A stretch of DNA of 64,000 nt from Candidatus Saccharimonadales bacterium (GCA_025451045.1 JANWLD010000003.1:133690-197689); one strand, 5' to 3'; positions 8,404 through 63,193 are shown, counted from the first letter of the stretch. The notes: a model not told the origin generated them from the letters alone. Numbers and translations are program-made.

Positions 8404-10410
8404 ATGAGCACGGACCAGCAAGCCGCCAATGTAATCCGAATCCTCTCGGCCGCTATGGTTGAGCGAGCAGGCAGCGGCCACCCCGGCGGCGCTATGGGCG
8501 CCGCCGATTTTATTCATGTCCTGTTTTCCGAATTCATGGTCGAAGACCCGGACAATCCGAAATGGCCTTGGCGTGATAGGTTTTTCCTCGATGCCGGGCA
8601 TATGTCGCCGATGATTTACAGTATCCTCACCCTGACTGGCCGGATGCCAATGGAGGAAATAAAAAACTTCCGGCAATGGGGCAGCAAAACTCCCGGTCAC
8701 CCGGAACGGGATTTGGACCTTGGGATAGAAAATACCAGCGGGCCACTCGGCCAAGGCCATGTCTTTGGTGTCGGTGCGGCCATCGCGGCCAAATTCCTAC
8801 AGGCTCGCTTTGGCGATTGGCAGGACCACACCATCTATTGCTTCATCAGCGACGGCGGTATCCAGGAAGAAATCAGCCAAGGCGCTGGGCGTATAGCGGG
8901 CAATCTGGGTTTGTCTAATTTGGTAATGTTCTATGACAGCAACCAAATTCAATTGTCGACCGAAACCAAAGCCGCGACTAGTGAAGATACTGCCAAAAAG
9001 TACGAAGCTTGGGGCTGGCGAACAATTACCATTGAGGGTAATAATCAGGACGAAATAAGAAAGGCGCTAAAAGCCGCCAAGGCTGAAAAATCCAAACCTA
9101 CATTGATTATTGGCAACACTGTCATGGGCAAATTCGCGCTGGACGAACATGGTAAGAAATTCGAACATCAAGTCAGCATGCACGGTATGCCGATTTCCGG
9201 CGCTGGCGGCTCGTATGAGAAAACTATTAAGAATCTTGGCGGCGACGTAGCTAATCCTTTTGTAATTCCCGATTCAGTTAAAGAGCTTTACGGGCAGTCG
9301 GCTGAGCGAAAAAAACAGGATGTTGCCGCTAGCAAAAAAGCGGAGTCGGAGTGGCGCAAAAATAATCTGGACAAAGCCAAGGATTTGGATTTTTACCTGT
9401 CCGGCCAACCGCCAAAGCTTGATTGGGGAAAAATTGCAAAAGAGCAAAAAGCAGATGCCGCAACCCGCGCAACCAGCAGCTATGTGTTGAGCCAGTTTGC
9501 TGAAAATATCGGAAATATGATTGTCATGAGCGCGGACCTAGCTAACAGCGATAAAACTGACGGCTTTTTAAAGAAATCTAAACCGTTTGTTCATGGTGAT
9601 TTTTCCGGCGCTTTTTTGCACTGCGGCGTCTCTGAGTTCACCATGGGCGCTCTGTCTATTGGTATGGCATTGCATGGCGGTGTGATTCCGGTTTGCGGTA
9701 CGTTCTTTGCCTTTTCTGATTATATGAAGCCAACGCTTCGTTTGGCGGCGCTGATGGAAGTTCCGGTCAAGTTTATGTGGACGCACGATGCTTTTCGCGT
9801 CGGCGAAGACGGCCCTACCCACCAGCCGGTTGAACAGGAAGCCCAATTGCGCCTGCTAGAGAAAGTTCATAACCATAGCGGCAAGCCCGGCTTCTTGGCG
9901 CTTCGTCCGGCAGATGGCGCTGAAACGACCGTTGCCTGGAAGATGGCTCTAGAAAATACTTCCACGCCAACGGGGCTTATCTTTACCCGCCAAAATATAG
10001 TTGATGTTACGGATTACAAACTGGCTCTAAACGCCGAGAAAGGCGCATACATTGCCCATGAGCCTAAAGGAAAGCCAGAGCTGGTAATTGTAGCTAACGG
10101 CAGCGAAGTCGGCTCGGCTTACGCCGCCATAAAGATGATTAAAGGAAAAAATATCCGTCTTGTGTCTGTTCCGAGCGAAGGCTTGTTCCGTGAACAACCC
10201 AAGGCTTACCAAGATTCAATCCTGCCAAGAGATGTCCCCCGATTCGGCGTGACAGCTGGCTTGGCTGTAAACCTGCTAGGACTTGTCGGTGATATAGATA
10301 GAATCCACAGTCTTGAGCATTTCGGCTTCAGCGCGCCTTATCAAAAGCTGGACGAAGAATTCGGCTTCACCCCAAAAGCCCTCGCTAAAGAAATCAAAGA
10401 GCTGGTTTAA
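8404..10410 (+). CDS. tkt: Transketolase
   Basis: GSGHPGGAMGAAD ThDP motif and full-length family features; start placed at MSTDQQ after SD AAGAGGTGG (track ORF starts at 8365). Confidence 0.93.
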   Translation: MSTDQQAANVIRILSAAMVERAGSGHPGGAMGAADFIHVLFSEFMVEDPDNPKWPWRDRFFLDAGHMSPMIYSILTLTGRMPMEEIKNFRQWGSKTPGHPERDLDLGIENTSGPLGQGHVFGVGAAIAAKFLQARFGDWQDHTIYCFISDGGIQEEISQGAGRIAGNLGLSNLVMFYDSNQIQLSTETKAATSEDTAKKYEAWGWRTITIEGNNQDEIRKALKAAKAEKSKPTLIIGNTVMGKFALDEHGKKFEHQVSMHGMPISGAGGSYEKTIKNLGGDVANPFVIPDSVKELYGQSAERKKQDVAASKKAESEWRKNNLDKAKDLDFYLSGQPPKLDWGKIAKEQKADAATRATSSYVLSQFAENIGNMIVMSADLANSDKTDGFLKKSKPFVHGDFSGAFLHCGVSEFTMGALSIGMALHGGVIPVCGTFFAFSDYMKPTLRLAALMEVPVKFMWTHDAFRVGEDGPTHQPVEQEAQLRLLEKVHNHSGKPGFLALRPADGAETTVAWKMALENTSTPTGLIFTRQNIVDVTDYKLALNAEKGAYIAHEPKGKPELVIVANGSEVGSAYAAIKMIKGKNIRLVSVPSEGLFREQPKAYQDSILPRDVPRFGVTAGLAVNLLGLVGDIDRIHSLEHFGFSAPYQKLDEEFGFTPKALAKEIKELV

Positions 10411-25081: not shown

Positions 25082-26260
25082 TTATAAAGCAATACGGGTC
25101 TTGGCGGCTTGCGCCAAAGTTTCCAGCATCCGCGCGGTGGTATCCAGCCCGACACATCCGTCGGTGACGGATTGGCCATAGACTAGTTTCTTGCCGGGTT
25201 CAAGTTTTTGAGCTCCTTCTACAAGATTGCTCTCTATCATTACGCCGCAGATATCAGGACTACCTTCGCTTACCTGACGGGCGACATTTTCAAGGACGGC
25301 TTCCTGATTACGGTAATCTTTGTTGCTGTTAGCATGCGAACAATCAATCATTATCGAAGTATTAAGGCCATTAGCGCGAAGTTTGTCCGTGGTCTCTTTG
25401 ACATGGCTTTTGTCATAATTCGCTCCTTTGCTGCTGCCACGCAGGACAATATGGCAATACGGGTTGCCTTTGGTCTTGATAGAGGCTGATTTACCCTTGA
25501 GATCTATACCTGGGAAAACATGCGATTCTTTGGAGGCGGCAATAGCATCAATGGCTATCTGTACACTGCCGCCGGTGCCGTTTTTGTATCCGACAGGGAA
25601 TGATACCCCGGAAACAAGTTCGCGGTGCAACTGGCTCTCAGTGGTACGGGCACCGATTGCGCCCCATGATACCAAATCGGAGACGTATTGCGGCGTACGG
25701 GTGCTTAACAGTTCGTAAGATACCGGCAAGCCAAGTTCGGTTATGTCGGCCAGAAGTTTTCGCGAAACCCTAAACCCCTTGTTGACATGGTAACTGCCGT
25801 CAAGGTCAGGGTCGTTAATAATTCCTTTCCAGCCGACCGTAGTACGTGGTTTTTCCAGGTATGTACGCATGACGATTTCTAACGTATCAGCGTATTTATC
25901 GCGCTGGCCTTTTAAGAAACGGGCGTATTCCATAGCCGCATCAGCGTCATGGATAGAACATGGGCCAACCACTACCAATAGCCTGCTATCTTTCCGTTCC
26001 GGTCCGACTATTTTTTCTATCGCCCGGCGGCTATTTATCACTGTTTCAGCTGATTTTTCGGATTGCGGGAATTCGCCGATGACTTGCTCAGGGCTGTCCA
26101 GCGGCAATATTTGTTCAATCCTACTATCTGTAAGTATCTGCTCTCTCATACTTTTTCTCTTAATAGATTGTACCTCATCCTCACGGATATCGTAGGGGCG
26201 ATCGGCAACCAATTCCGTTTTTGGTGCTTCTCGCGGCTTGTCTTCGGTTAAAGTTTCCAT
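25082..26260 (-). CDS. aroG: 3-deoxy-7-phosphoheptulonate (DAHP) synthase, class I
   Basis: VVVGPCSIHD, KPRTTVGWKG and IDCSHANS motifs; cannot distinguish the F/G/H isozyme type. Confidence 0.9.
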   Translation of the reverse strand: METLTEDKPREAPKTELVADRPYDIREDEVQSIKRKSMREQILTDSRIEQILPLDSPEQVIGEFPQSEKSAETVINSRRAIEKIVGPERKDSRLLVVVGPCSIHDADAAMEYARFLKGQRDKYADTLEIVMRTYLEKPRTTVGWKGIINDPDLDGSYHVNKGFRVSRKLLADITELGLPVSYELLSTRTPQYVSDLVSWGAIGARTTESQLHRELVSGVSFPVGYKNGTGGSVQIAIDAIAASKESHVFPGIDLKGKSASIKTKGNPYCHIVLRGSSKGANYDKSHVKETTDKLRANGLNTSIMIDCSHANSNKDYRNQEAVLENVARQVSEGSPDICGVMIESNLVEGAQKLEPGKKLVYGQSVTDGCVGLDTTARMLETLAQAAKTRIAL

Positions 26261-26273
26261 AAATTTCTCCTTA

Positions 26274-26306
26274 TAAAATAAAAATCGCCCGCTCTTCAGC
26301 GGACGA
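26274..26306 (-). terminator. Attenuator terminator upstream of DAHP synthase
   Basis: Minus strand: UCGUCCGCU-GAAG-AGCGGGCGA (9 bp, one G.U), then AUUUUUAUUUU; SD AAGGAG and ATG follow within ~25 nt. Confidence 0.7.
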
Positions 26307-26329
26307 GGTGCTTTTTCTTAGTAGTTTAT

Positions 26330-26410
26330 TTAAAACGCAAATTGAGCACTGTCCGCGCTAAGCGGCATAAAGTAAGTGCTAAACCAATACTGTTTTAAAT
26401 ATGTTTTCAC
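26330..26410 (-). CDS. Aromatic-rich leader peptide (V/M)KTYLKQYWFSTYFMPLSADSAQFAF
   Basis: 27-codon ORF from GTG; 8 of 26 residues are Tyr/Trp/Phe; sits between a promoter-like element and the terminator in front of DAHP synthase. Confidence 0.55.
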   Translation of the reverse strand: MKTYLKQYWFSTYFMPLSADSAQFAF

Positions 26411-26417
26411 GATTACT

Positions 26418-26447
26418 ACTATACTACATTTATTTTGCTAATGCAAA
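26418..26447 (-). promoter_or_regulatory. Putative promoter of the aromatic leader
   Basis: TTTGCA (26442-26447), 18-nt spacer, TATAGT (26418-26423), 7 nt, GTG. Confidence 0.4.
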
Positions 26448-26448
26448 C

Positions 26449-26700
26449 CTATCTTTTGAATTTGCGCTTGCCCGACCCGCGAAGTCTTCTCGCGGCTCTA
26501 GTGATCATATCCAGCTCAGGACCCTGTCTTGCCGGCGGCGTTTTCTTATCTTCTTTACGCCGTCCTTTTGGTTCTTCTGAGGCTTCCGAGGCGTCAGGTT
26601 CGGTCGAATCCTTGGCAACTATATCTTCGGCTTCGCCCGTGCTGCCTCTGACTTCAATATCATCATTCCCCAGCATTTCCATATCTATATTATAGCGCAC
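26449..26700 (-). CDS. Hypothetical disordered 83-aa protein (acidic N-terminal half, basic C-terminus)
   Basis: ORF co-oriented with the M20 peptidase gene and overlapping its end by 16 nt; low complexity, so uncertain. Confidence 0.35.
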   Translation of the reverse strand: MRYNIDMEMLGNDDIEVRGSTGEAEDIVAKDSTEPDASEASEEPKGRRKEDKKTPPARQGPELDMITRAARRLRGSGKRKFKR

Positions 26701-27767
26701 TGCTCGAGATATTTACGGAGTATAGTGGTTAGCTGAATAACTCCTTCGGCGTCCACCCACTCGCTGTCAGCATGCCGCCCGCCGCCGTTAGGCTGGATAA
26801 CGACACAAGGTATATTATGGGCACAAAAATACCGCGCGTCGGTTGAGCCGACAGAATGGCTCTTGGGGATTTTCCGGCCCAGCACTGTTTCGGCAGTCCG
26901 GATAAAGTCGATTATTTCCGGTTTTTCGGTATCTACGTTTATGCACGAGAAAAGTTCGATGTTTTTACTGTCCACGCCATGTTTTAGGCATATCTTCTCC
27001 ACTTGAGCCTTGAGACTTTCATATATTTCACTGGTTTTGAACCGGATGTCTAAAACAGCTTCGGCGTGGTCGGGAATCTGGTTCATGGCTTTGCCGGAGC
27101 TGATTTTCGTAAGCGACAGTGTCAATTCTTCGTCAGAGTAGTCTTCGCGGAGTTTGTGAAGTTCGTGTATCGTTCGGGTCAAGATTTCCGCGGCGTTTAT
27201 TCCTTTGTGAGGGACAGAGCCATGGGCGTTCTTGCCGGTTTTTGAAAGTTTGACGAACCAGGCGCCGTTGCCGGTCGACTCCAAGTGCCAGTCTTTGCCG
27301 GAATCCGGCAGAATACAAACATTGGCGCCGTAGCCTTGGTTGAGCAAGGCTTCAACGCCGTTGTGGCCGCCGATTTCTTCGTCAAAACTGAGCATAATAC
27401 CAAAATCGTATTTGGAGGTGTCTTTTCCAAGGTCATTAATTAGCTTCATATAGCTAGCGCAAGCGAATTTCATATCGAAAGTACCCCGGCCTTTCAGCTT
27501 ACCGTCTTCTCTTTTCATTTTAAAAAGCTTGTCACCCGCTGGTACGACATCCATATGGCATTGAAGCATTACTTTCGGTTTTTTGGTCTTTTGAGCGGTA
27601 GCAACGACATTAGGATAACCGTCGGACTCTATTAGCTTGGTATGCAGGCCGTGAGATTTGAAAAATTCAGCGCAATGCTCAGCGCAGGCTTTTGAGGCCT
27701 TTTTATCGGCTGTAACCGAAGCAAAGGCCACCAGTTCTTCCAGATAGTCAGCTTCACTCTTCATGCC
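26685..27767 (-). CDS. M20-family metallopeptidase/deacylase (ArgE/DapE-like)
   Basis: LQCHMDVVPAGD, GRGTFDMK and SFDEEIGG metal-ligand motifs; start placed at the internal MGMKSE (track ORF extends to 27833). Confidence 0.8.
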   Translation of the reverse strand, partial: GMKSEADYLEELVAFASVTADKKASKACAEHCAEFFKSHGLHTKLIESDGYPNVVATAQKTKKPKVMLQCHMDVVPAGDKLFKMKREDGKLKGRGTFDMKFACASYMKLINDLGKDTSKYDFGIMLSFDEEIGGHNGVEALLNQGYGANVCILPDSGKDWHLESTGNGAWFVKLSKTGKNAHGSVPHKGINAAEILTRTIHELHKLREDYSDEELTLSLTKISSGKAMNQIPDHAEAVLDIRFKTSEIYESLKAQVEKICLKHGVDSKNIELFSCINVDTEKPEIIDFIRTAETVLGRKIPKSHSVGSTDARYFCAHNIPCVVIQPNGGGRHADSEWVDAEGVIQLTTILRKYLEQCAII

Positions 27768-27801
27768 CATATTATAGGCTAAATCCGGGTAAATCGCTTC
27801 C

Positions 27802-28215
27802 TTAGGCCGCTTGCTGTATTTCGACCGGCTCAACTGTTTGAGCGGTTGATGCTCTGCCCAAGTCCTTCTCTACGTCAAGTTCGGACAGCCGATCATGCAG
27901 ATTGTGCGGAAGCTCATGGACAAGCTGGACATAATTAGTAATGGGCATGCGGATAATTGGTTTGCCTTCGGCTACCTTTATCCATGCCGCGGGCTTGCCG
28001 CGTTCCTGTTTTGCTTTGGCAAAAGTGTCGTTACGCTTGGTAAGTACCGTGCTATTCGGGTCGAAAGTGCCATCTTCGTATACATAGCGTTCAACGCCGT
28101 TTTGCATGGTCGTAACCCTCATCCTTGGCCCTTCGTATGATTCCGGATAACCCAGTAATTTCTTGCCGTCAGGATAAATTTTTCTTTGCGGCGGTTTGTA
28201 CATCTTTTTGTTCAT
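27802..28215 (-). CDS. Hypothetical 137-aa protein, first gene after the Leu/Ile/Val leader
   Basis: ORF with SD AGGAG; no recognisable motif. Confidence 0.55.
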   Translation of the reverse strand: MNKKMYKPPQRKIYPDGKKLLGYPESYEGPRMRVTTMQNGVERYVYEDGTFDPNSTVLTKRNDTFAKAKQERGKPAAWIKVAEGKPIIRMPITNYVQLVHELPHNLHDRLSELDVEKDLGRASTAQTVEPVEIQQAA

Positions 28216-28235: not shown

Positions 28236-28264
28236 AAAAACTCCCGCTTGGTTAGCGGGAGCTC
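28236..28264 (-). terminator. Attenuator terminator (Leu/Ile/Val leader)
   Basis: Minus strand: AGCUCCCGCU-AACCA-AGCGGGAGUU, then UUUAAUUU; the structural-gene SD lies ~15 nt downstream. Confidence 0.75.
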
Positions 28265-28287
28265 ATTTTCTTAGGTTAATTACAAGC

Positions 28288-28347
28288 TTACCCGCTGGTC
28301 TCCGGGGCCACTACTACTGCGATTGCGAGTATTAATGATTTGCTCAT
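28288..28347 (-). CDS. Leader peptide MSKSLILAIAVVVAPETSG
   Basis: 20-codon ORF; 7 of 19 residues are Leu/Ile/Val, plus 4 Ala; AGCGGG-UA-AGCU around the stop codon is complementary to the terminator 5' arm. Confidence 0.65.
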   Translation of the reverse strand: MSKSLILAIAVVVAPETSG

Positions 28348-28353
28348 AATTCC

Positions 28354-28382
28354 ACCTTACGCCTCTCTGTTAATGTTGTCAA
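28354..28382 (-). promoter_or_regulatory. Putative promoter of the Leu/Ile/Val leader, with its -35 overlapping the upstream stop codon
   Basis: TTGACA (28377-28382, contains the TGA stop of the 528-aa gene), 17-nt spacer, TAAGGT (28354-28359), 6 nt, ATG. Confidence 0.4.
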
Positions 28383-29965
28383 GCAGCTTTCTTAGCTTCA
28401 GCTTTTTGGACTCGTTCTTCGGCACGGTCAATTACATTGACAGCATGCATCAAAGCCTCAACTCCAGCTCTTTCTGAAACTTTTGATTTGGCGTGGGTGT
28501 CTATTTCGTATCCGTTATGTTTGACGGTCGCGAATATTCTGACCGCAGCATCTGAACCTTCTTCCAGATCATCAACGTGCCAGCCGCCAATATCAAACTC
28601 AAAACCTACGATAAACTGCATCACCTGCTTTGCGGCATCTACTACGCCGCCTTCTGATTTGACAGTCTTTTTCTGTCCGTTGATGGTGAGGGTTGCCTCG
28701 CAAATCCCCTCTGTGTCTCCGCTGAAAGAGAAAGTCTCAAGATTGAACTTGTCTTCCATCTTCTCCCCGGTCACTCCGCTAGCAAGTTTTTCGAGGTCAT
28801 TGTGGCCGAGATTTCTGTCTTCATTTGTTGAGAGGTCTTTAACAGCTTCCGTTACCCTCAATAGTTCATCGTCACCCACATTTACATTTAGTCTGGAAAG
28901 TTCGTATCGGACCCCGGCTTTGCCGCTTTGGTCATTTATCTTGAACTCAAAAGGCTTATCAAAACCGAATGTCGAAGAAGGAAAGTTCTTAAAGGTTCCC
29001 TCGTCTTTGATTACGCCGTCCTGATGCATGCCGGAACCGTGCACATAGCTTTTGCGGCCAATGAACGGTTGAGTTTCTGCAACACGTACGCCAAGTGCCC
29101 GCGGCGCTACGCTATGGGTCAGATTACGCAATTTCAACGGGTCGACATTTGTCCTAAGACCCAGTTCTGGCTGGACGGCTATATTACCGACCACCAGTTC
29201 TAAAGGAGTGTTGCCATTGCGCTCACCGACTCCGCCGATTGTTACCTCAACCTGTTCGGCACCGCCGAAACGCAAGGCATCCACGCTATTCATTACCGAT
29301 TGCCCCAAGTCATTGTGGCAATGGGCTGCGATGACTACATCTTTAAAGCCCTGGCTGTCCAGTTCTTCACGTACTGCCAATAGTCTTTCGGAGTATTCTC
29401 TTGGCAACATAGCCCCTACGGTATCAGGAAGCATCATAGTTGTTGCACCAGTGTTGGCTACGGCAAGAACCGTTTTTTTCAAAAACTCCAAGTCAGCCCT
29501 TGTTGAATCTTCAAACGAGAATTCTACGTCATGCGTATGTTCCTTCGCCTGTTTGGTTGATTTAACTGCGAGTTCAAGCAGGCTTTTTCTGCCCATGCCG
29601 AGACGTTCTTTTATGTGCAAATCACTGACCGGCGCGCAAACGTTAATCCGAGCCCTATCACCGGCCGGTTCCAACGCCCGGCCGGCTTGTTCTATATCTT
29701 CAGGCAGTGTTCGAGCAAAAGCGGCTATGATAGGACCGTTTACTTTATCTGCGATATTTCGAACGGTTGCAAAATTGCCGCGGCTGGATCCGGGAAAACC
29801 GGCTTCAATCACATCCGTACCGGCTTCCGCCAAGCTTTCGGCAATGTATAAGGCGTTTTCCTTATTGGCGCTTGCATCGGGTGATTGGACTCCGTCGCGA
29901 AGCGTGGTATCAAAAATTATCACATTGGTTGGTTCTTTAAGTTGTTCTCCGCCTTGCTCTCTCAT
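28379..29965 (-). CDS. LeuA/CimA-family 2-alkylmalate synthase, 528 aa (citramalate synthase inferred from its Ile leader)
   Basis: FDTTLRDGVQS, HCHNDLG, and a C-terminal LeuA-dimer-type regulatory domain. Confidence 0.88.
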   Translation of the reverse strand: MREQGGEQLKEPTNVIIFDTTLRDGVQSPDASANKENALYIAESLAEAGTDVIEAGFPGSSRGNFATVRNIADKVNGPIIAAFARTLPEDIEQAGRALEPAGDRARINVCAPVSDLHIKERLGMGRKSLLELAVKSTKQAKEHTHDVEFSFEDSTRADLEFLKKTVLAVANTGATTMMLPDTVGAMLPREYSERLLAVREELDSQGFKDVVIAAHCHNDLGQSVMNSVDALRFGGAEQVEVTIGGVGERNGNTPLELVVGNIAVQPELGLRTNVDPLKLRNLTHSVAPRALGVRVAETQPFIGRKSYVHGSGMHQDGVIKDEGTFKNFPSSTFGFDKPFEFKINDQSGKAGVRYELSRLNVNVGDDELLRVTEAVKDLSTNEDRNLGHNDLEKLASGVTGEKMEDKFNLETFSFSGDTEGICEATLTINGQKKTVKSEGGVVDAAKQVMQFIVGFEFDIGGWHVDDLEEGSDAAVRIFATVKHNGYEIDTHAKSKVSERAGVEALMHAVNVIDRAEERVQKAEAKKAA

Positions 29966-29982
29966 TCTTCTCCTTATAAATT

Positions 29983-30007
29983 AAAAACTCCCGCTTTCGC
30001 GGGAGCT
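29983..30007 (-). terminator. Attenuator terminator (Ile leader)
   Basis: Minus strand: AAGCUCCCGC-GAAA-GCGGGAGUUU, then UUAAUUU; SD AAGGAGA and ATG follow directly. Confidence 0.78.
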
Positions 30008-30032
30008 TAGCTTTCAAAAACAAAAAGTAAAC

Positions 30033-30086
30033 TTACCCGCGTGCCTCCGGGATAATAATTATTGTGTCAATAATCTGTTTACTCAT
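30033..30086 (-). CDS. Ile-rich leader peptide MSKQIIDTIIIIPEARG
   Basis: 18-codon ORF; 6 of 17 residues are Ile, including a run of four; CGCGGG-UA-AGUU around the stop codon is complementary to the terminator 5' arm. Confidence 0.7.
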   Translation of the reverse strand: MSKQIIDTIIIIPEARG

Positions 30087-30094
30087 CGTCTGAG

Positions 30095-30123
30095 ATTGTA
30101 TAACCTTGAGAATTAGTTGTCAA
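30095..30123 (-). promoter_or_regulatory. Putative promoter of the Ile leader
   Basis: TTGACA (30118-30123), 17-nt spacer, TACAAT (30095-30100), 8 nt, ATG. Confidence 0.55.
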
Positions 30124-30130
30124 CTTTTGG

Positions 30131-31981
30131 TTATTTATAATATGAACTTTGGAACATCTTTGTCATGGATCTTTTATGTATTTCTCTTTGGTGGCGCCAT
30201 TCAGCCCTTTTTATAAGGTTAACTGCTTTGATATAGGCGTGGATGGTGGCGTTGTTCAGGCTGGTGCCTTCGCTGTATGCAGTTACGGTCACGCCTTTAT
30301 AAGCCACCTTGACTATAGCTCCTGCTTCAGAATCGGAGCCGCTATGAAGGGCAAAAGGTTTCGCATCTTCAATATCCCCGCTAAAGTCAAGTATCTTACC
30401 GATGGCGATTCTGGCGGCATCTACTTCCCCCTTGTTGCTCGTGGCTTTTTCTGTTCGTCTCTTGCCGTCTATATTTAAAGTTATTTTGGCATAGTCATCA
30501 TTTTCCTTCCCGTGGGATTTTGCGTGCAGTTCACTATCTGTCATTTTTATAGCGTCGTCCTGCCCGTGGAATAACTGTTCAAGCGCGAAGGCCTCGATTT
30601 CTAGATCGGTTATGGGCTGTTTCCTTGTTTTTGAAACGGTGTTGGAGTTGATAACTATTTGTTCTATATCAAGCTTAGCTACATCAAAGGCTAGATCGGT
30701 TAATCTTTTCACGGTTTCTTCCGAATTAATTACCAATTCTGACTTGTAGATGTCCGTACCGCCAAGATTGGCCCGACCAGCTTTACCTTGGTACTTCCCA
30801 TCTTCCAATATAGCCGCGACGGGATGTCCGAAGCCTCGGTTGTCTACAGCGGCGTAGGTCGCGGCCCCTCCTTTATTAATAGCATCCGAATGAACGCCCG
30901 AGCGGTGAACTATAGTATGGAAACCGGTGACGGGGGTATCGGGGTCAAGCTCCAATCCGGCGGCGTCTAATAGGCCTTCTGCTACGGCTTTCAACTTGGT
31001 TGTATCCACCGTAATTACTACGGGCGCGGCAAACTCATCCCGATCGGTCAGAACGTTGCGTACATAAGGCGCTAAATACATATTGCCGTTGCGTTCGCCT
31101 TTGCCGGGAGCGCTGACTGACTCCACTTGAAAGTCCGGTATAGCTGAACTTCTTGCTAACGCGGCGTTTATTACCGCATGCATTGAAGATATGGTGTTTT
31201 GAACGGCTCTCTGGCCATCATCGTGGTTGTGGCTCGATATCGTAATCTCTTCCACCCTGCCTTCGTCAATCATCCAGTTTGTCGCGGCGTCGAATATTTT
31301 GGCCATGCGGATAGGACTGGCAGCTCCTAGAGTGTCGGGCAGGTTAATTACATTTATATCTTCCTGCAGTGCGGTTCTGACTGCTCTTTCTAAGAAGACC
31401 ATATCAGTTGTAGAAGCTGCTTCGCAGGAAAACTCTACCGTACCATCAGGTCCTATTGCATCTCGGGCTCTGCGTATACTGTCCACGCCCATTTCAAGTA
31501 CTTCTTCCCTGGTCATGGCAGGGTGTTTTGCGCGCATGTGTTCTTCGGCGGTGGCGATAAATACATGTATTCCGGGTCTGTCAGCTTCTTCTACGGCTCT
31601 GGCTGCTTGCTCAATTCCTGCCGGATTAGCCAGAGTAAGTCCGGTAATGACAGGCGTCCAGATTTTTGGCGGCAAGTCTACCCAGTTACCATTTTCAATA
31701 GACTTCGGTAATATCTGGTACTGGGTTTGCCCGACTGTTCTGGCTACTTCAGCTATTTCTTCTTCATCGCCCATACTGGCTGGAAAGCCAGCTTCGATTA
31801 CGTCTACTCCCTGGCTTACTATCAACTCCGCCAGCTCGACTTTTGAGCCTTCAGGGAATTGATTCTCCTGAGGCAAAGACTGCGCCCCGTCGCGTAGCGT
31901 AGTGTCGAATATCTCTATTTTCATTGCCGCCGGATCAAATTCCGGTTTAGAAGGCAGTGTTTCTACTTGGCTTTGTATCAT
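30131..31981 (-). CDS. LeuA-family 2-isopropylmalate synthase-like enzyme, 616 aa
   Basis: FDTTLRDGAQS, SSHNHDDG (HxH) and a C-terminal LeuA-dimer-type domain; preceded by a Leu-rich leader. Confidence 0.85.
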   Translation of the reverse strand: MIQSQVETLPSKPEFDPAAMKIEIFDTTLRDGAQSLPQENQFPEGSKVELAELIVSQGVDVIEAGFPASMGDEEEIAEVARTVGQTQYQILPKSIENGNWVDLPPKIWTPVITGLTLANPAGIEQAARAVEEADRPGIHVFIATAEEHMRAKHPAMTREEVLEMGVDSIRRARDAIGPDGTVEFSCEAASTTDMVFLERAVRTALQEDINVINLPDTLGAASPIRMAKIFDAATNWMIDEGRVEEITISSHNHDDGQRAVQNTISSMHAVINAALARSSAIPDFQVESVSAPGKGERNGNMYLAPYVRNVLTDRDEFAAPVVITVDTTKLKAVAEGLLDAAGLELDPDTPVTGFHTIVHRSGVHSDAINKGGAATYAAVDNRGFGHPVAAILEDGKYQGKAGRANLGGTDIYKSELVINSEETVKRLTDLAFDVAKLDIEQIVINSNTVSKTRKQPITDLEIEAFALEQLFHGQDDAIKMTDSELHAKSHGKENDDYAKITLNIDGKRRTEKATSNKGEVDAARIAIGKILDFSGDIEDAKPFALHSGSDSEAGAIVKVAYKGVTVTAYSEGTSLNNATIHAYIKAVNLIKRAEWRHQREIHKRSMTKMFQSSYYK

Positions 31982-31993
31982 TTTTTCTCCATT

Positions 31994-32024
31994 AAATTAA
32001 AAATAGGCTTCTTGGTTGAAGCCT
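31994..32024 (-). terminator. Attenuator terminator (Leu leader)
   Basis: Minus strand: AGGCUUC-AACCAA-GAAGCCU, then AUUUUUAAUUU; SD GGAGA lies ~15 nt downstream. Confidence 0.7.
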
Positions 32025-32063
32025 GATGCTTTGGGCTGTACTGTGGCTCCGATACCCTCGGAA

Positions 32064-32141
32064 CTAGGCTTCAACCATGCTGAAGCACAGCCCTTTAAGG
32101 CTGAGTAGGAGGTCCAAGTGCTTCGCTATGTATGAAACCAT
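32064..32141 (-). CDS. Leu-rich leader peptide MVSYIAKHLDLLLSLKGLCFSMVEA
   Basis: 26-codon ORF; 6 Leu, clustered as LDLLLSLKGL; its last codons GGUUGAAGCCU(AG) are an 11-nt perfect complement of the terminator 5' arm plus loop. Confidence 0.72.
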   Translation of the reverse strand: MVSYIAKHLDLLLSLKGLCFSMVEA

Positions 32142-32150
32142 ATCAAAATA

Positions 32151-32179
32151 ACGATAACCCGCTTTAGGTCTTTTGTCAA
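32151..32179 (-). promoter_or_regulatory. Putative promoter of the Leu leader
   Basis: TTGACA (32174-32179), 17-nt spacer, TATCGT (32151-32156), 9 nt, ATG. Confidence 0.5.
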
Positions 32180-32180
32180 A

Positions 32181-32273
32181 CCCCGTAGTGAGCTTTCGTG
32201 ACTCTCTCGGCCAAGTGGCCGGGAAACTTTAGCCGCCCCTTTGGGCGGCTAAACTCGAAAGTCTACTACAGGG
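32181..32273 (-). mobile_element. Palindromic insertion element, copy A
   Basis: Minus strand reads CCCTGTAGTAGAC...GCTCACTACGGGG, flanked by 5-bp direct repeat TCAAA (32176-32180, 32274-32278). Inner stem TTTCG/CGAAA; the interior carries the hairpin TTTAGCCGCCC-AAAG-GGGCGGCTAAA (32228-32253). Confidence 0.55.
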
Positions 32274-44439: not shown

Positions 44440-45468
44440 ATGACTGACAAGACTTCCGACTACAAAATTGCGACTCTTGGGAGCCATTCCGCGCTTCAGA
44501 TACTAAAAGGCGCGCGCGACGAAGGCTTTAAAACAATGATAATCGCCCTCAAGGGACGGACTCAGCCGTATGAGTCTTTCAAAGTTGCCGATGAGATAAT
44601 TGAGCTGGAATCATTCAAGGACCTCCCCGGTTTGGAACAGCGGCTGATTGATGAGAATGTGATTTTAGTACCGCACGGCTCATTTTTTAGCGCCTATACC
44701 GATTTGGAGGCATTAAACCAATCCGACGCGCTTTACTTCGGTAATAAAAAGATTTTGCCATGGGAACAAAGCCGGACTAAACAGCGTGAATGGCTGAAAA
44801 AAGCCGGACTGACCCTGCCGAAGATTTATGATAAGCCCGAAGATATCGACGGCCCTTGCATCATCAAGTTTTATGGTGCTGGCGGCGGCAAAGGATACTT
44901 TTTGGCCAAGACCGCCGAAGAGTTTTATGAAAAAATCAAACCTCATAAAGACAAGAGATACATAATCCAGCAATACATCGTCGGAGCGCCGCTGTATGTA
45001 CATTACTTCTACTCGCCGCTAACAGGCGAGCTCGAAGTGATGAGCATGGACAAGCGTTACGAGACCAACGTCGATTCCATCGGGCGTATAAGCGCCAAAG
45101 ACCAACTGGATTTGAATATCGAAAGCTCTTACAACATCATGGGCAACCTGCCGGTGGTAGTACGCGAATCGATGTTGCCGCAGATATTTTCTATGGGTGA
45201 AGAGGTCGTTAAGGTTTCCAAGAAACTGGAGCCGGGCGGACTCACCGGACCGTTTTGCCTGGAAACAATAGTCACGCCGGAACTGGAATTTTATGTATTT
45301 GAAATTTCCGCCCGCATCGTCGCGGGGACTAATCCGTACATCAACGGCTCGCCCTATACTGATCTTCGTTACAAAGAACCAATGAGTACCGGTCGCCGCG
45401 TAGCACGAGAGATAAAGCTAGCATTAGAAAGTGATGAAATAGAAAAGGTTTTGATAAATGGCAATTGA
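44440..45468 (+). CDS. purP: Archaeal-type 5-formaminoimidazole-4-carboxamide ribonucleotide (FAICAR) synthetase, PurP family
   Basis: IATLGSHSALQILKGARDEGFKT N-terminal signature, then an ATP-grasp region. Confidence 0.78.
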   Translation: MTDKTSDYKIATLGSHSALQILKGARDEGFKTMIIALKGRTQPYESFKVADEIIELESFKDLPGLEQRLIDENVILVPHGSFFSAYTDLEALNQSDALYFGNKKILPWEQSRTKQREWLKKAGLTLPKIYDKPEDIDGPCIIKFYGAGGGKGYFLAKTAEEFYEKIKPHKDKRYIIQQYIVGAPLYVHYFYSPLTGELEVMSMDKRYETNVDSIGRISAKDQLDLNIESSYNIMGNLPVVVRESMLPQIFSMGEEVVKVSKKLEPGGLTGPFCLETIVTPELEFYVFEISARIVAGTNPYINGSPYTDLRYKEPMSTGRRVAREIKLALESDEIEKVLINGN

Positions 45469-46579
45469 CAGCAGCAAACTACTAGACGGTTATGACTTGA
45501 ATAACATTCGCATTGCTACGCTCGGCGGACATAGCGCGCTGGACGTATGCCGCGGCGCGAAGAGCGAAGGGTTCGAAACGGTCGTTGTAGCCCAAAAAGA
45601 CCGCGCCAAGACTTTTACCGATTATTACAAAACCCGCGGTAACAAAGGCTGTGTCGACCATGTCATCTTGGTAGATGATTTCGCGGACGTAGCCAAGCCG
45701 GAAATCCAGAAACAACTACGCGAATTAAACGCGGTATTCGTACATAGCCGTTACTTTTGGGTTTACTGCGATATCAACCAGATTGAAAATGATTTTAACG
45801 TGCCGATTATCGGCAACCGGGTGCTGGTGCGCAAAGAAGAGCGCGACGAAGAAAAAAACCAGTACTTCCTACTCAAAGAAGCCGGTATAAATATCCCGAA
45901 ACAGTTTGCTGATCCAAAAGACATTGACCGTCAGGTTATCGTCAAGGCTGCCGAAGCGAACCGTAAGTATGAGCGGGCCTTTTTCTTGGTGCATAGCTAT
46001 GAAGACTATCTGGCCGAGTCCAAGAAACGTTTGGACAGCGGCGCTATAGATAAGCAGTCTTTAGACAATGCGATTATCGAAGAATTTGTTCTTGGTCCGC
46101 AATTGAACTTGAATTTCTTTTATTCGCCAGTTACGGATGAGCTGGAGCTACTGGGAACTGACACTCGCCGCCAGACTAATATAGATGGTCTCTTGCGCCT
46201 GACCGCAACTGAGCAGACTGAAGTATTGAAGCACGTCCGGCCGCAATATATCGAGAACGGACATATAGCCGTCACTATAAAAGAATCTTTGCTGGAAAAG
46301 GCATATGAAGCCGGCGAGAAGTTTGTTGAGTCGGTTGCCAAGCATTATCCGCCCGGTATGATTGGCCCGTTTGCCCTCCAAGGCGCGATTACCCCCGGCC
46401 CGCCAAAAGAAAAATTGTTTGTTTTTGACGTGAGCATGCGCATTCCCGGCAGTCCCGGTACAATGTTTACGCCCTACTCCGGCTATATGTACGGTGAAAA
46501 TATGAGCGTTGGCAAGCGCCTGGCCATGGAAGTCAAACAAGCCATAGCCGAAAATAAATTAGATCTATTAATTACTTAA
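45458..46579 (+). CDS. PurP-family paralog (second ATP-grasp formate-dependent ligase-like gene)
   Basis: IATLGGHSALDVCRGAKSEGFET; overlaps the first purP by 11 nt. Confidence 0.72.
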   Translation: MAIDSSKLLDGYDLNNIRIATLGGHSALDVCRGAKSEGFETVVVAQKDRAKTFTDYYKTRGNKGCVDHVILVDDFADVAKPEIQKQLRELNAVFVHSRYFWVYCDINQIENDFNVPIIGNRVLVRKEERDEEKNQYFLLKEAGINIPKQFADPKDIDRQVIVKAAEANRKYERAFFLVHSYEDYLAESKKRLDSGAIDKQSLDNAIIEEFVLGPQLNLNFFYSPVTDELELLGTDTRRQTNIDGLLRLTATEQTEVLKHVRPQYIENGHIAVTIKESLLEKAYEAGEKFVESVAKHYPPGMIGPFALQGAITPGPPKEKLFVFDVSMRIPGSPGTMFTPYSGYMYGENMSVGKRLAMEVKQAIAENKLDLLIT

Positions 46580-60701: not shown

Positions 60702-61925
60702 ATGGCCAGGATTAATGAGAATTATAAGAAGCTTCAGGAAGGGTACCTTTTTCCCGAGATATATAAGCGTACGGTCGCGTTCCAAAAGAATAACCCCGGC
60801 GTTGAGCTGATTAAACTTGGTATTGGCGATACGACCCGGCCGCTAACGATGGCAGTGGTCAAGCATTTGCACGAAGTAGCTGATGAAATGGCCGACGAAA
60901 GTACTTATCGGGGGTATGATGCCGAACAAGGCATTATGGAACTGAGAGAAGCCCTGGCAAAACATTACAAAAAATACGGTGTAAATCTAAAAGCAGACGA
61001 AGTGTTTATAAATGACGGGGCGAAGCCTGATCTTGCCAACCTGCAGTCAATCTTCGCAGGCAATAGCGTAGTAGCAGTACAGGACCCGGTCTATCCGGCA
61101 TATGTAGACAGTACGGTTATCAGCGGTAAGACCACCGGCTATAAGGATGGAAAATATGAGGGCATAGTTTATATGGATTGCACCGAGGAGAACGGCTTTT
61201 TCCCTGACTTGCCTAAACAAAACGTAGACTTGATATATCTTTGCAGCCCGAACAACCCGACCGGCGCGGTGGCAACACACGAGCAGTTGAAAAAATTCGT
61301 CGACTACGCCCAAGAAAAAAAGGCGGTTATTATCTTTGACGCGGCTTATAGCGCATTTATATCCGACGTGGGCCTGCCTCGTTCGATTTATGAAGTCGAT
61401 GGCGCGAAAACCTGCGCGATTGAGGTAAACAGTTTCTCCAAGCTCGCCGGCTTTACCGGTGTGCGTCTGGGGTGGACAGTTGTACCGCATGAACTCTGCG
61501 CAGAAGGTACAAAGCCCGGTGAAGTCCAAGCGCTCTGGGACCGGCGCCAAACAACGATGTTTAACGGCGCGTCCAATATAGCCCAGCTGGCCGGAATTGC
61601 CGTGCTTTCAGAAGAGGGCCAGGAGGAAGTCCGCGAAGTAATTGATTACTATATGCACAACGCCAAGATTATCCGTGACGGATTAGCTGAAGTTGGCCTT
61701 GAAGTTTCGGGCGGCACGAACGCGCCGTATATCTGGGCGAAGACGCCAAATGGCCTTGATTCTTGGGAATTTTTTGACAAAGCTTTGAATGAAGCCCATG
61801 TGGTGGTAACGCCCGGCGCCGGTTTTGGACAGCGCGGCGAAGGCCATTTCCGTCTCAGTGCTTTCGGCAAACGGGAAAATATTGAAAAAGCGGTAGATAA
61901 TATAAAAAAGAATTTGAAGATATGA
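60702..61925 (+). CDS. dapL: LL-diaminopimelate aminotransferase
   Basis: INENYKKLQEGYLFPEI N-terminal signature; SFSKLAGFTGVRLG PLP-lysine region. Confidence 0.86.
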   Translation: MARINENYKKLQEGYLFPEIYKRTVAFQKNNPGVELIKLGIGDTTRPLTMAVVKHLHEVADEMADESTYRGYDAEQGIMELREALAKHYKKYGVNLKADEVFINDGAKPDLANLQSIFAGNSVVAVQDPVYPAYVDSTVISGKTTGYKDGKYEGIVYMDCTEENGFFPDLPKQNVDLIYLCSPNNPTGAVATHEQLKKFVDYAQEKKAVIIFDAAYSAFISDVGLPRSIYEVDGAKTCAIEVNSFSKLAGFTGVRLGWTVVPHELCAEGTKPGEVQALWDRRQTTMFNGASNIAQLAGIAVLSEEGQEEVREVIDYYMHNAKIIRDGLAEVGLEVSGGTNAPYIWAKTPNGLDSWEFFDKALNEAHVVVTPGAGFGQRGEGHFRLSAFGKRENIEKAVDNIKKNLKI

Positions 61926-63193
61926 GCAAAAACCTGCCCTTTGACGAGAAAAAACTACGGGAAATCGCCGGTAAATACCCTACACCGTTCCATATTTATG
62001 ACGAGGCCGGTATCAGGAAGACCGCGAAAGCCCTGAATGCCTGTTTTGATTGGTCGGAAAACTATATTAATTATTTCGCGGTCAAGGCTACGCCGAACCC
62101 ATATATTATGTCTATTCTTAAAGAAGAAGGTATGGGTGCCGACGCCAGCTCCCTGCCCGAACTGCTTTTATCCGAAGCCGCGGGCCTTTCCGGCGAGCAG
62201 ATTATGTTCACTTCCAATAACACCCCGCCTGAGGAGTACAAGAAGGCTTATGAACTCGGCGCGGTCATCAATCTGGATGATATCAGCCAGATAGAAGTGC
62301 TTCACCAAACTCTCGGTGGTAAATTCCCTGAGCTCATTAGTTTTCGCTACAATCCCGGGCCGGATAGGGTGACGGATAAAGGCAATGTCATAGGTAATCC
62401 GCAGGATGCCAAATACGGGGTGACGACCGAACAGCTGCCGGAAGCTTATGCCAAAGCGCGCAGTCTTGGCGCTAAACGCTTTGGTTTGCACACAATGGTA
62501 ATTTCCAATGAGCGCAAAGAAGAGGGCCATATCCAAACCGCTGAGATGTTATTTGAAATGGCTGTGAAATTAAAGCAGGAAAAAGATATACGGATAGAAA
62601 CGGTAAATTTTGGCGGAGGACTAGGTATTCCCTACAAGCCGGATGAACAGCCGATTGACCTTGATAAGCTCAAAGAAGGCATAAAAAACAAATACGAAGA
62701 AATCGTAGTAAAAAACGGCCTAGAGCCTATACGGATAGTTACTGAAAATGGCCGGTTCGTGACCGGACCGAACGGCTATCTGGTAACGACCGTCAGAAGC
62801 TTGAAGCATACCTACCATGATTTCGCGGGGGTTGATGCGACGATGGCCGATCTTATGCGGCCGGGTATGTACAGCGCCTACCATCATCTAACGGTTCCCG
62901 GAAAAGAAGGTACCCCTACCAAGCCGCAGCGGGTTACCGGCAGTTTGTGTGAAAATAACGATATCTTTACCGGTCCGAGCGACCGGCTGCTACCGGAGCT
63001 TGCCGTCGGTGATTTGGTTGTGATTCACGACACCGGAGCGCACGGCCATGCCATGGGTTTTAACTACAATGGCAAACTAAGGCACTCGGAACTTCTGCTC
63101 AAAGAAGACGGTTCTATCCAGCAGATCCGCCGTAGCGAGACTGTCGCTGATTACTTCAAAACGTTAGATTTTCCCGGCTTGAATTCCGCTTAA
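61922..63193 (+). CDS. lysA: Diaminopimelate decarboxylase (group IV PLP decarboxylase)
   Basis: Alanine-racemase-fold decarboxylase features (YFAVKATPNP, GGGLGIPY, GSLCENNDIF); ATGA overlap with dapL supports the lysA assignment. Confidence 0.82.
   Translation: MSKNLPFDEKKLREIAGKYPTPFHIYDEAGIRKTAKALNACFDWSENYINYFAVKATPNPYIMSILKEEGMGADASSLPELLLSEAAGLSGEQIMFTSNNTPPEEYKKAYELGAVINLDDISQIEVLHQTLGGKFPELISFRYNPGPDRVTDKGNVIGNPQDAKYGVTTEQLPEAYAKARSLGAKRFGLHTMVISNERKEEGHIQTAEMLFEMAVKLKQEKDIRIETVNFGGGLGIPYKPDEQPIDLDKLKEGIKNKYEEIVVKNGLEPIRIVTENGRFVTGPNGYLVTTVRSLKHTYHDFAGVDATMADLMRPGMYSAYHHLTVPGKEGTPTKPQRVTGSLCENNDIFTGPSDRLLPELAVGDLVVIHDTGAHGHAMGFNYNGKLRHSELLLKEDGSIQQIRRSETVADYFKTLDFPGLNSA

Follow-up and report, generated by a model that had tools for sequence, protein, structure and literature searches.

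Organization of the locus

The 64,000-nucleotide stretch of DNA considered here (the window; Candidatus Saccharimonadales bacterium, GCA_025451045.1 JANWLD010000003.1:133690-197689) carries four consecutive units with predicted attenuators on its minus strand between 25.0 and 32.2 kb, whose short leader open reading frames (ORFs) contain runs of Leu, Ile, Val, and aromatic codons, in that order. The first two units hold LeuA-family genes, one encoding a 616-aa protein (30131..31981) and the other a 528-aa protein (28379..29965). A preliminary description of this DNA had placed a head-to-tail pair of HMGL-type synthases with C-terminal regulatory domains here, and ORFs with exactly these limits were indeed recovered on the minus strand. 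A Pfam scan detected an HMGL-like domain (PF00682) and a LeuA_dimer domain (PF08502) in both products, with insertions in the HMGL-like domain of the 616-aa protein and an additional HCS_D2 domain in the 528-aa protein. The C-terminal allosteric LeuA_dimer domain matched with E-values of 2.4e-11 (616 aa) and 2.7e-9 (528 aa), and the R-D and H-x-H metal/substrate ligands of the DRE-TIM (HMGL-like) domain are present in both proteins, which share only 28% identity. The best NCBIfam matches of both are bacterial 2-isopropylmalate synthase (IPMS) models, their nearest solved structures are bacterial IPMS catalytic domains, and their named homologues belong to Candidatus Saccharibacteria, which places the source of the window in the Patescibacteria. 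Recent horizontal transfer of the block was considered and rejected: its GC content, 0.47, is the same as in the remainder of the window, and base composition is even.

The two leaders announced in the preliminary description, Leu before the 616-aa gene and Ile before the 528-aa gene, were both located on the minus strand, each with a promoter, a short ORF, and a terminator. The Leu promoter (TTGACA-17-TATCGT, 32151..32179) ends 9 nt before the leader ATG, giving a near-leaderless transcript. The leader ORF (32064..32141) encodes MVSYIAKHLDLLLSLKGLCFSMVEA, and its LLL run is written CTC-CTA-CTC, using the two Leu codons that are rarest among the window genes. A conserved RNA core, GGGCUGUGCUUCAGCAUGGUUGAAGCC (32067..32093), supplies the 5' arm of a long-range helix (helix A) and a hairpin with the 3' arm GGUUGAAGCC; positions 32033..32063 contain a variable hairpin, UUCCGAGGGUAUCGGAG, together with ACAGCCC, which forms the 3' arm of helix A. 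The intrinsic terminator, AGGCTTC-AACCAA-GAAGCCT plus a T run, lies at 31998..32024 (stem 32024-32005). Segment GGUUGAAGCC can also pair with the terminator 5' arm GGCUUCAACC, and this antiterminator pairing is the minimum free energy structure. The Ile unit has a promoter with 11 of 12 matches (TTGACA-17-TACAAT, 30095..30123) ending 8 nt before the leader ATG, a leader ORF (30033..30086) encoding MSKQIIDTIIIIPEARG with an IIII run and six Ile among 17 codons, and an intrinsic terminator, AAGCTCCCGC-GAAA-GCGGGAGTTT (29985..30008); as a candidate antiterminator, an upstream GCGGG can pair with CCCGC. Both terminators end 20-23 nt before the start codon of their enzyme gene.

The remaining two units, also on the minus strand, are built alike. 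The Val attenuator (28238..28382), located between the 528-aa gene and the ORF that follows, came to light through a sub-threshold Trp_leader match. It comprises a promoter (TTGACA-17-TAAGGT), a leader ORF (28347..28288) encoding MSKSLILAIAVVVAPETSG, and a terminator (28264-28238), and its VVV-run leader shares an RNA scaffold with the Ile leader. The operon behind it (26685..28215) comprises an ORF of 137 aa that matches no family (27802-28215) and a gene for an M20/ArgE-DapE-type hydrolase (26685-27833), whose true start is probably near 27770. The aromatic attenuator (26285..26447) has a promoter (TTTGCA-18-TATAGT), a GTG-start leader ORF (26410..26330) encoding KTYLKQYWFSTYFMPLSADSAQFAF, and a terminator (26306-26285). 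It precedes a gene for an AroF/G/H-type 3-deoxy-D-arabinoheptulosonate 7-phosphate (DAHP) synthase (25082..26260) that scores above the NCBIfam cut-offs. The aromatic run reads YLKQYWFSTYF, and the element is kept in two of the related loci collected below, L001 (IWFYNYF) and L005.

Among the 74 short ORFs in the 64 kb that contain a run of at least three identical residues, a perfect terminator follows only three, which are the leaders of the Leu, Ile, and Val units. Of the 58 window genes, only the four in these attenuator units have a strong terminator placed 20-24 nt ahead of the start codon, with stems of 7-11 bp plus T runs. This leader-terminator arrangement lies far beyond chance. All four leader regions fold more stably than shuffled controls (z-scores given: -3.6, -5.4, and -2.9). 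At gathering thresholds, Rfam reported only three tRNAs in the window and no leader family; permissive E-values added only sub-threshold Trp_leader and Phe_leader matches at the leaders (20-21 bits vs gathering values of 41-55), and these elements therefore belong to no curated Rfam family.

Leader RNAs across Saccharimonadales

When one genome per species was scanned with the 24 specified bases of the core of the Leu leader, 53 genomes proved to carry it, and except for a small number labeled otherwise these are metagenome-assembled genomes of Saccharibacteria/Saccharimonadales; at least 55 species of Saccharimonadales have the Leu leader RNA. Translated in frame, the copies from these roughly 55 species have in common a C-terminal module, (S/G)LxGLCFxMVEA, which corresponds to the conserved RNA, and the run just before the module varies between LLL(L) and an I/V-rich mixture. 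Synonymous Leu codons in the run differ between species, and frame and codon runs are kept in about 70 leaders. For 44 of 72 leaders, the end of a strong promoter lies 6-11 nt upstream of the start codon of the leader, which indicates that leaderless transcripts are the templates of the leader peptides.

This first RNA scaffold has four parts: helix A, the hairpin with 3' arm GGUUGAAGCC, a visibly covarying variable hairpin, and the terminator with 5' arm GGCUUCAACC. Helix A is a 9-bp long-range helix formed by GGGCUGUGC with GCACAGCCC and is kept in 54-60 of 60 sequences. Loci L063 and L064, which were found through their protein rather than by pattern, show compensatory changes in helix A, and in L063 the antiterminator/terminator pair has undergone a compensatory change to GAUUGAAGCC with GGCUUCAAUC. 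Base pairs of the terminator show 7-20 double changes. The Ile and Val leaders are built on a second scaffold, CCCGGAG..GCGGG-UAA..GCUCCCGC..GCGGGAGUUUU; a metagenome scan with this pattern returned only four short contigs. The order of the block itself (HAD, LeuA-type, second gene, small ORF, M20, DAHP synthase) recurs with the same leaders in L001, L005, and L069, where the proteins share 59-73% identity with their window counterparts.

From this anatomy a switch can be proposed. A sigma-70-type promoter would start a near-leaderless short ORF, and scarcity of the charged tRNA would stall the ribosome at the Leu, Ile, Val, or aromatic codon run, leaving an upstream RNA segment free. That segment could then pair with the 5' arm of the terminator, so that RNA polymerase would read through into the enzyme gene; a ribosome reaching the stop codon, or absent translation, would instead allow the terminator to form 20-24 nt before the gene. 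The geometry of stalling presumably favors the antiterminator. The Leu unit would deliver the 616-aa enzyme, a divergent LeuA of a Saccharibacteria type and most likely a 2-isopropylmalate synthase. The product of the Ile unit, the 528-aa enzyme, would most likely act on acetyl-CoA and a smaller 2-oxoacid (pyruvate, giving citramalate), feeding 2-oxobutyrate and Ile. The Val unit would deliver the small protein without family match together with the M20 hydrolase, and the aromatic unit the DAHP synthase.

The 27-nt core is extremely conserved at the nucleotide level and adopts a three-way-junction-like fold, as might be expected if the upstream elements acted without leader translation, either riboswitch-like or as protein-binding RNA, with the short ORFs as by-products. 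For the LEU element of actinobacteria, such translation-independent action has been suggested, and PMC1262725 reports that leader-codon mutations in Streptomyces did not match classical attenuation. However, the codon run is the only part of the leader that changes systematically with the regulated gene, and it does so in frame, with synonymous variation and rare codons. Moreover, a second, unrelated scaffold follows the same logic with Ile and Val runs, the start codon stands at a fixed leaderless distance from the promoter, and Rfam returned no match. Control without translation is on this evidence highly improbable, and attenuation by a translating ribosome is the reading carried forward here.

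Codon runs and downstream genes

The codon run of a leader is linked to the gene behind it. Behind Leu-run leaders, the gene is a LeuA with the IPMS pocket (described below) in 14 cases and a different one in two, and the corresponding numbers for Ile/Val-run leaders are 0 and 24 (Fisher 5e-9, without phylogeny correction and from counts that are not phylogenetically independent). The LeuA-family genes behind Leu runs are of four kinds, namely canonical, the 616-aa type, its ~390-aa form without a regulatory domain, and a 470-aa type. Ile/Val runs precede acetohydroxyacid synthase (AHAS; IlvB plus an ACT small subunit), RidA-IlvA, a short IlvA, M20 hydrolases, or members of the 528-aa clade, and pure Leu runs were never found before the last of these. 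An IIII leader stands before a 528-aa clade gene (P528) in the window, L001, L059, and L062, and before an IlvA-like dehydratase gene in L005, L012, L035, and L061. In L069, which holds the closest 616-aa homologue (63% identity), the 528-aa slot is occupied by RidA-IlvA.

A similar exchange is visible at the Leu unit. The gene that follows this Leu leader in L001 reaches 595 bits, above the IPMS equivalog cut-off of 532. The window (31880-32200, minus strand) and L001 (8030-8350) have promoter, leader, and about 15 first codons in common at the DNA level, and beyond that point the proteins are 28% identical. One LeuA type has thus been replaced in situ by another under a fixed regulator, which argues for the same job of both LeuA types.

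Several other genes recur behind the leaders. A conserved protein of ~143 aa with no family match is encoded directly behind IIII leaders in L005 (8747-9178), L035 (1870-2300), and L069 (5310-5738), and is sometimes followed by a short IlvA. Small ORFs of 75-97 aa occur between leaders and LeuA-type, IlvB, or RidA genes. A further LeuA-like clade of ~470 aa lies behind Leu-run leaders in L017 (6541-7890), L021 (4827-6236), L009, and L044; its pocket reads H, S, N, A, and no LeuA_dimer match was noted. VVV(V) leaders precede the same 137-aa/M20 gene pair in L001, L005, L060, and L061, and M20 genes also lie behind scaffold-1 leaders in L007 and L019. This distribution suggests that amino-acid scavenging hydrolases are members of the same regulon as the biosynthetic targets.

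About 25 Leu-type leaders, complete with terminator and ribosome-binding site, are followed only by non-conserved small ORFs of 50-170 aa, which counts against a strict coupling of leader and enzyme; the RNA element is therefore not exclusively tied to recognizable biosynthetic genes. Such orphan leaders occur in the 8-kb loci L010, L014, L015, L018, L022, L025, L026, L028, L030, L033, L034, L041, L042, L045-L047, L053, and L055-L058, and many of them lie just upstream of rplJ-rplL. Simple gene decay behind them is not supported, as tblastn recovered no remnants of LeuA, IlvA, or IlvB.

Substrate pocket and phylogeny

To compare the pockets, about 60 family members were aligned to the N-terminal sequence of E. 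coli LeuA. Positions H97, S139, N167, and P169 of this enzyme are reportedly the pocket residues of published LeuA engineering. PMC7826400 refers to that engineering work only in general terms. Residues H, S, N, and P occupy these positions in every canonical LeuA and in the whole 616-aa clade, in long and short forms alike, whereas all nine members of the 528-aa clade carry N, S, M, and P (H97N and N167M) and so depart from the IPMS pocket. Neither clade has lost the metal and catalytic residues. The preliminary description had called for a phylogeny of the two paralogs, and in the neighbor-joining tree they fall into separate clades, neither inside canonical LeuA: the 528-aa clade, a small one of Saccharibacteria, branches beside it, and the 616-aa clade stands apart. 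The latter is specific to Saccharibacteria/Patescibacteria and has barrel insertions, and many of its members have no regulatory domain.

A division of function between the two enzymes had been drawn from the leaders in the preliminary description. That proposal is strengthened by three independent lines, namely the codon-run/gene link across about 70 leaders, the conserved pocket difference, and the presence of IlvA in the 528-aa slot, although by hidden Markov model (HMM) score both proteins still look like bacterial LeuA. As judged from sequence, the 616-aa protein is likely to be a 2-isopropylmalate synthase. The 528-aa clade and IlvA alternate under one Ile-specific switch and therefore would share an output, 2-oxobutyrate for Ile; for a LeuA-family protein, this output in turn points to citramalate synthase. 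The chances that the 528-aa protein is indeed a citramalate synthase for the Ile branch appear about even. If it is, its position outside the known citramalate-synthase clades would imply a new origin of the activity. The predicted split, with an isopropylmalate synthase on one side and a probable new lineage of citramalate synthases on the other, is, as such, well supported.

The profile scores weigh against these assignments. The 616-aa and 528-aa proteins reach 221 and 385 bits, respectively, where the LeuA equivalog cut-off is 532 (TIGR00973/NF00208x), and neither reaches any equivalog cut-off. Three citramalate-synthase models (TIGR00977, NF042433, and the archaeal TIGR02090), whose cut-offs are 450, 950, and 485, give the 528-aa protein 127, 104, and 249 bits, much lower than its scores on the LeuA models. 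To these must be added the shared phylogeny behind the codon-run counts and the mapping of the pocket positions, which depends on an E. coli LeuA N-terminal sequence whose numbering reproduces H97, S139, N167, and P169.

The same scores raise the question of whether both proteins are simply IPMS isozymes, the Ile-rich leader then representing multivalent branched-chain control as in the enterobacterial ilv leaders. The best HMM and PDB matches of both are indeed bacterial IPMS, and LeuA_dimer is present in both. However, the two conserved pocket substitutions of the 528-aa clade occur in no IPMS examined. The leader of the 528-aa gene, moreover, is a pure Ile run and never a Leu run, and it stands before threonine dehydratase in relatives; pure Leu runs, for their part, never precede this clade. 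A pair of isozymes is very unlikely in light of these observations, and the split into IPMS and a citramalate-type synthase is retained.

Fate of the remaining pathway steps

The preliminary description had noticed neither leuBCD nor ilv or additional aro genes in the 64 kb, and Pfam scans of all window ORFs agree, having detected no LeuB, LeuCD, IlvB, IlvC, IlvD, or IlvE and, as the sole shikimate enzyme, the DAHP synthase. Nor were leuB, leuCD, ilvC, and ilvD found in the window, in about 60 related loci, or in the 10 kb flanking ilvBN to each side on three long contigs. These absences speak against a role of the two synthases in supplying Leu and Ile, because neither enzyme yields an amino acid unless leuB, leuCD, ilvC, and ilvD are at hand. 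A strict motif scan of the related loci for LeuB, IlvD, aconitase-type, ketol-acid reductoisomerase, and shikimate enzymes, itself a weak negative, returned only AHAS and class-IV aminotransferase candidates.

Two readings of this pattern deserve weight. In the first, the downstream genes, leuCD and leuB among them, lie elsewhere in the genome, and the pathways are scattered but functional. In the second, only entry steps are present: the genome keeps the feedback-controlled first enzymes (a LeuA type, citramalate synthase or IlvA, DAHP synthase, and in relatives AHAS), and either a host bacterium finishes the products or is acted on by them, or the genes are remnants of pathways being lost. 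About 0.6 Mb of Saccharimonadales sequence around the leaders contains only first-step enzymes and hydrolases and never leuB, leuCD, ilvC, or ilvD, as the second reading would predict. The ilvBN-ridA-ilvA clusters are without ilvC, the usual neighbor of ilvBN; the genes are patchy in distribution and replaced in situ; and many leaders have no recognizable gene behind them. Cultivated Saccharibacteria, in addition, are amino-acid auxotrophs living on Actinobacteria.

Set against this, the attenuators, allosteric domains, and conserved residues are sensible only if the product becomes the amino acid in question, and neither citramalate nor isopropylmalate is of any use where LeuCD and LeuB are lacking. 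The absence, furthermore, covers only the surroundings of the leaders. AHAS is widespread in Saccharimonadales and IlvE-like genes occur. In L067 (18600-19850, minus strand), a bifunctional chorismate mutase/prephenate dehydratase gene (pheA) and an aminotransferase gene lie behind an F-Y-F leader, MRTQSNKQFYFTGTNLAVCS, with a terminator; amino-acid genes are therefore dispersed in this lineage, and together with the IlvE-like genes this relative argues for dispersed but real pathways. Since amino-acid-specific control and allosteric domains would have little purpose for dead-end products, scattered but functional pathways are favored and are, by analogy with leuA and aroF in Corynebacterium, probably present; retention of entry steps only is, by comparison, unlikely. 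Taken jointly, the explanation that we consider probable combines four attenuated units, an IPMS plus a citramalate-type synthase, and pathways scattered elsewhere.

A more specific form of the entry-steps reading is quite unlikely. Here, only the entry enzymes for Leu, Ile/Val, and aromatic amino acids would be kept and switched by tRNA charging in the epibiont, and the intermediates would be completed by an actinobacterial host. If true, these intermediates would be isopropylmalate, citramalate or 2-oxobutyrate, acetohydroxy acids, and DAHP, and the epibiont would bypass the feedback control of its host, raising the supply of scarce amino acids.

Some further gene arrangements were seen among the related loci. 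A compact cluster of ridA, ilvB, ilvN (an ACT subunit of 85-88 aa), and ilvA that lacks ilvC occurs in L029, L031, L049, L067, and L068; the ilv cluster of L067 has a third leader type (9440-9620, plus strand), beginning MNVIANSIILVIIVVLA, with no obvious terminator. Threonine dehydrogenase and 2-amino-3-ketobutyrate CoA ligase come after IlvA in L006, L020, and L054.

Comparison with known systems

The closest parallels are the attenuators of C. glutamicum, where leader peptides precede the monocistronic leuA (four Leu codons), ilvBNC, trpE, and aroF (Phe-Tyr-Phe) (PMC4046766; PMC1262725). PMC4046766, citing Morbach et al. 2000, states that the ilvBNC leader peptide is formed without a ribosome-binding site. 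The targets are alike, comprising a monocistronic isopropylmalate synthase, AHAS in relatives, and DAHP synthase, with the aromatic leader before the window DAHP synthase paralleling that of aroF. So are the Leu, Val/Ile, and Phe-Tyr-Phe runs, the leaderless transcript, and the terminator directly before the gene. Unlike the C. glutamicum attenuators, those described here come from Patescibacteria and have unrelated RNA sequences without an Rfam match, one scaffold being reused with reprogrammed codon runs in front of different genes; their targets, in addition, extend to another enzyme of LeuA type, a short form of IlvA, an M20 hydrolase, and numerous uncharacterized small ORFs. The preliminary description regarded a separate organization of the committed-step enzymes as notable. 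Such an organization is normal in Corynebacterium for leuA and DAHP synthase (PMC4046766), and it is the phylum that makes it unusual.

With the enterobacterial leu, ilvGMEDA, ilvBN, pheA, and trp leaders, the elements share the 1:2, 2:3, 3:4 hairpin scheme, rare codons, and a stop codon by segment 2. They differ from the enterobacterial families (Leu_leader, Phe_leader RF01859, and Trp_leader RF00513) in their monocistronic units, leaderless leader transcripts, and sub-threshold Rfam scores. Judged by sequence, the mechanism would be classical attenuation, and what is new is the phylum, RNA scaffolds outside Rfam, the reuse of a scaffold with reprogrammed codons, and two divergent LeuA clades.

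As for the enzymes, both resemble bacterial LeuA (TIGR00973/NF002086; 3rmj, 3eeg) in having an HMGL-like domain followed by LeuA_dimer and in their R-D, H-x-H, and E residues. The 616-aa protein also keeps the LeuA pocket (H97, S139, N167, and P169), in contrast to the N and M of the 528-aa clade at positions 97 and 167. In its predicted dedication to Ile, altered pocket, and Ile-linked regulation, the 528-aa protein is reminiscent of citramalate synthases (LiCMS, 3ble; archaeal CimA; the TIGR00977 type; and apple MdCMS), of which MdCMS is, according to PMC7826400, derived from IPMS. Unlike the known citramalate synthases, however, it falls in none of their clades, and its H to N and N to M substitutions are its own.

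A literature search on isopropylmalate, acetolactate, or DAHP synthase, leader peptides, and amino-acid biosynthesis in Saccharibacteria/TM7/Patescibacteria returned nothing relevant. Saccharibacteria and other bacteria of the candidate phyla radiation are generally described as epibionts unable to make amino acids. A supposedly auxotrophic lineage would thus retain finely regulated entry steps of amino-acid synthesis, and the units would constitute the first regulatory regulon for this phylum that is legible from sequence alone. The leader may also serve as a guide to function for divergent enzymes, pointing here to a Saccharibacteria-type IPMS clade and to a probable fourth independent origin of citramalate synthase. 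It further raises a sharp question, namely whether whole branched-chain and aromatic pathways exist in scattered units or as entry steps only.

Other genes of the window

Two further groups of genes were noted outside the attenuated block. On the plus strand at 44440-46579, two adjacent paralogs combine DUF1246 with DUF1297 near purA, guaA, and pyrF; we take them to be archaeal-type PurP (FAICAR synthetase), which would be unusual for a bacterium. At 60702-63193, also on the plus strand, a gene resembling LL-diaminopimelate aminotransferase adjoins one resembling diaminopimelate decarboxylase, and the ArgE/DapE-type gene at 26685-27833 (minus strand) is grouped with them. It follows that the lysine/peptidoglycan precursor pathway is encoded at least in its final part.

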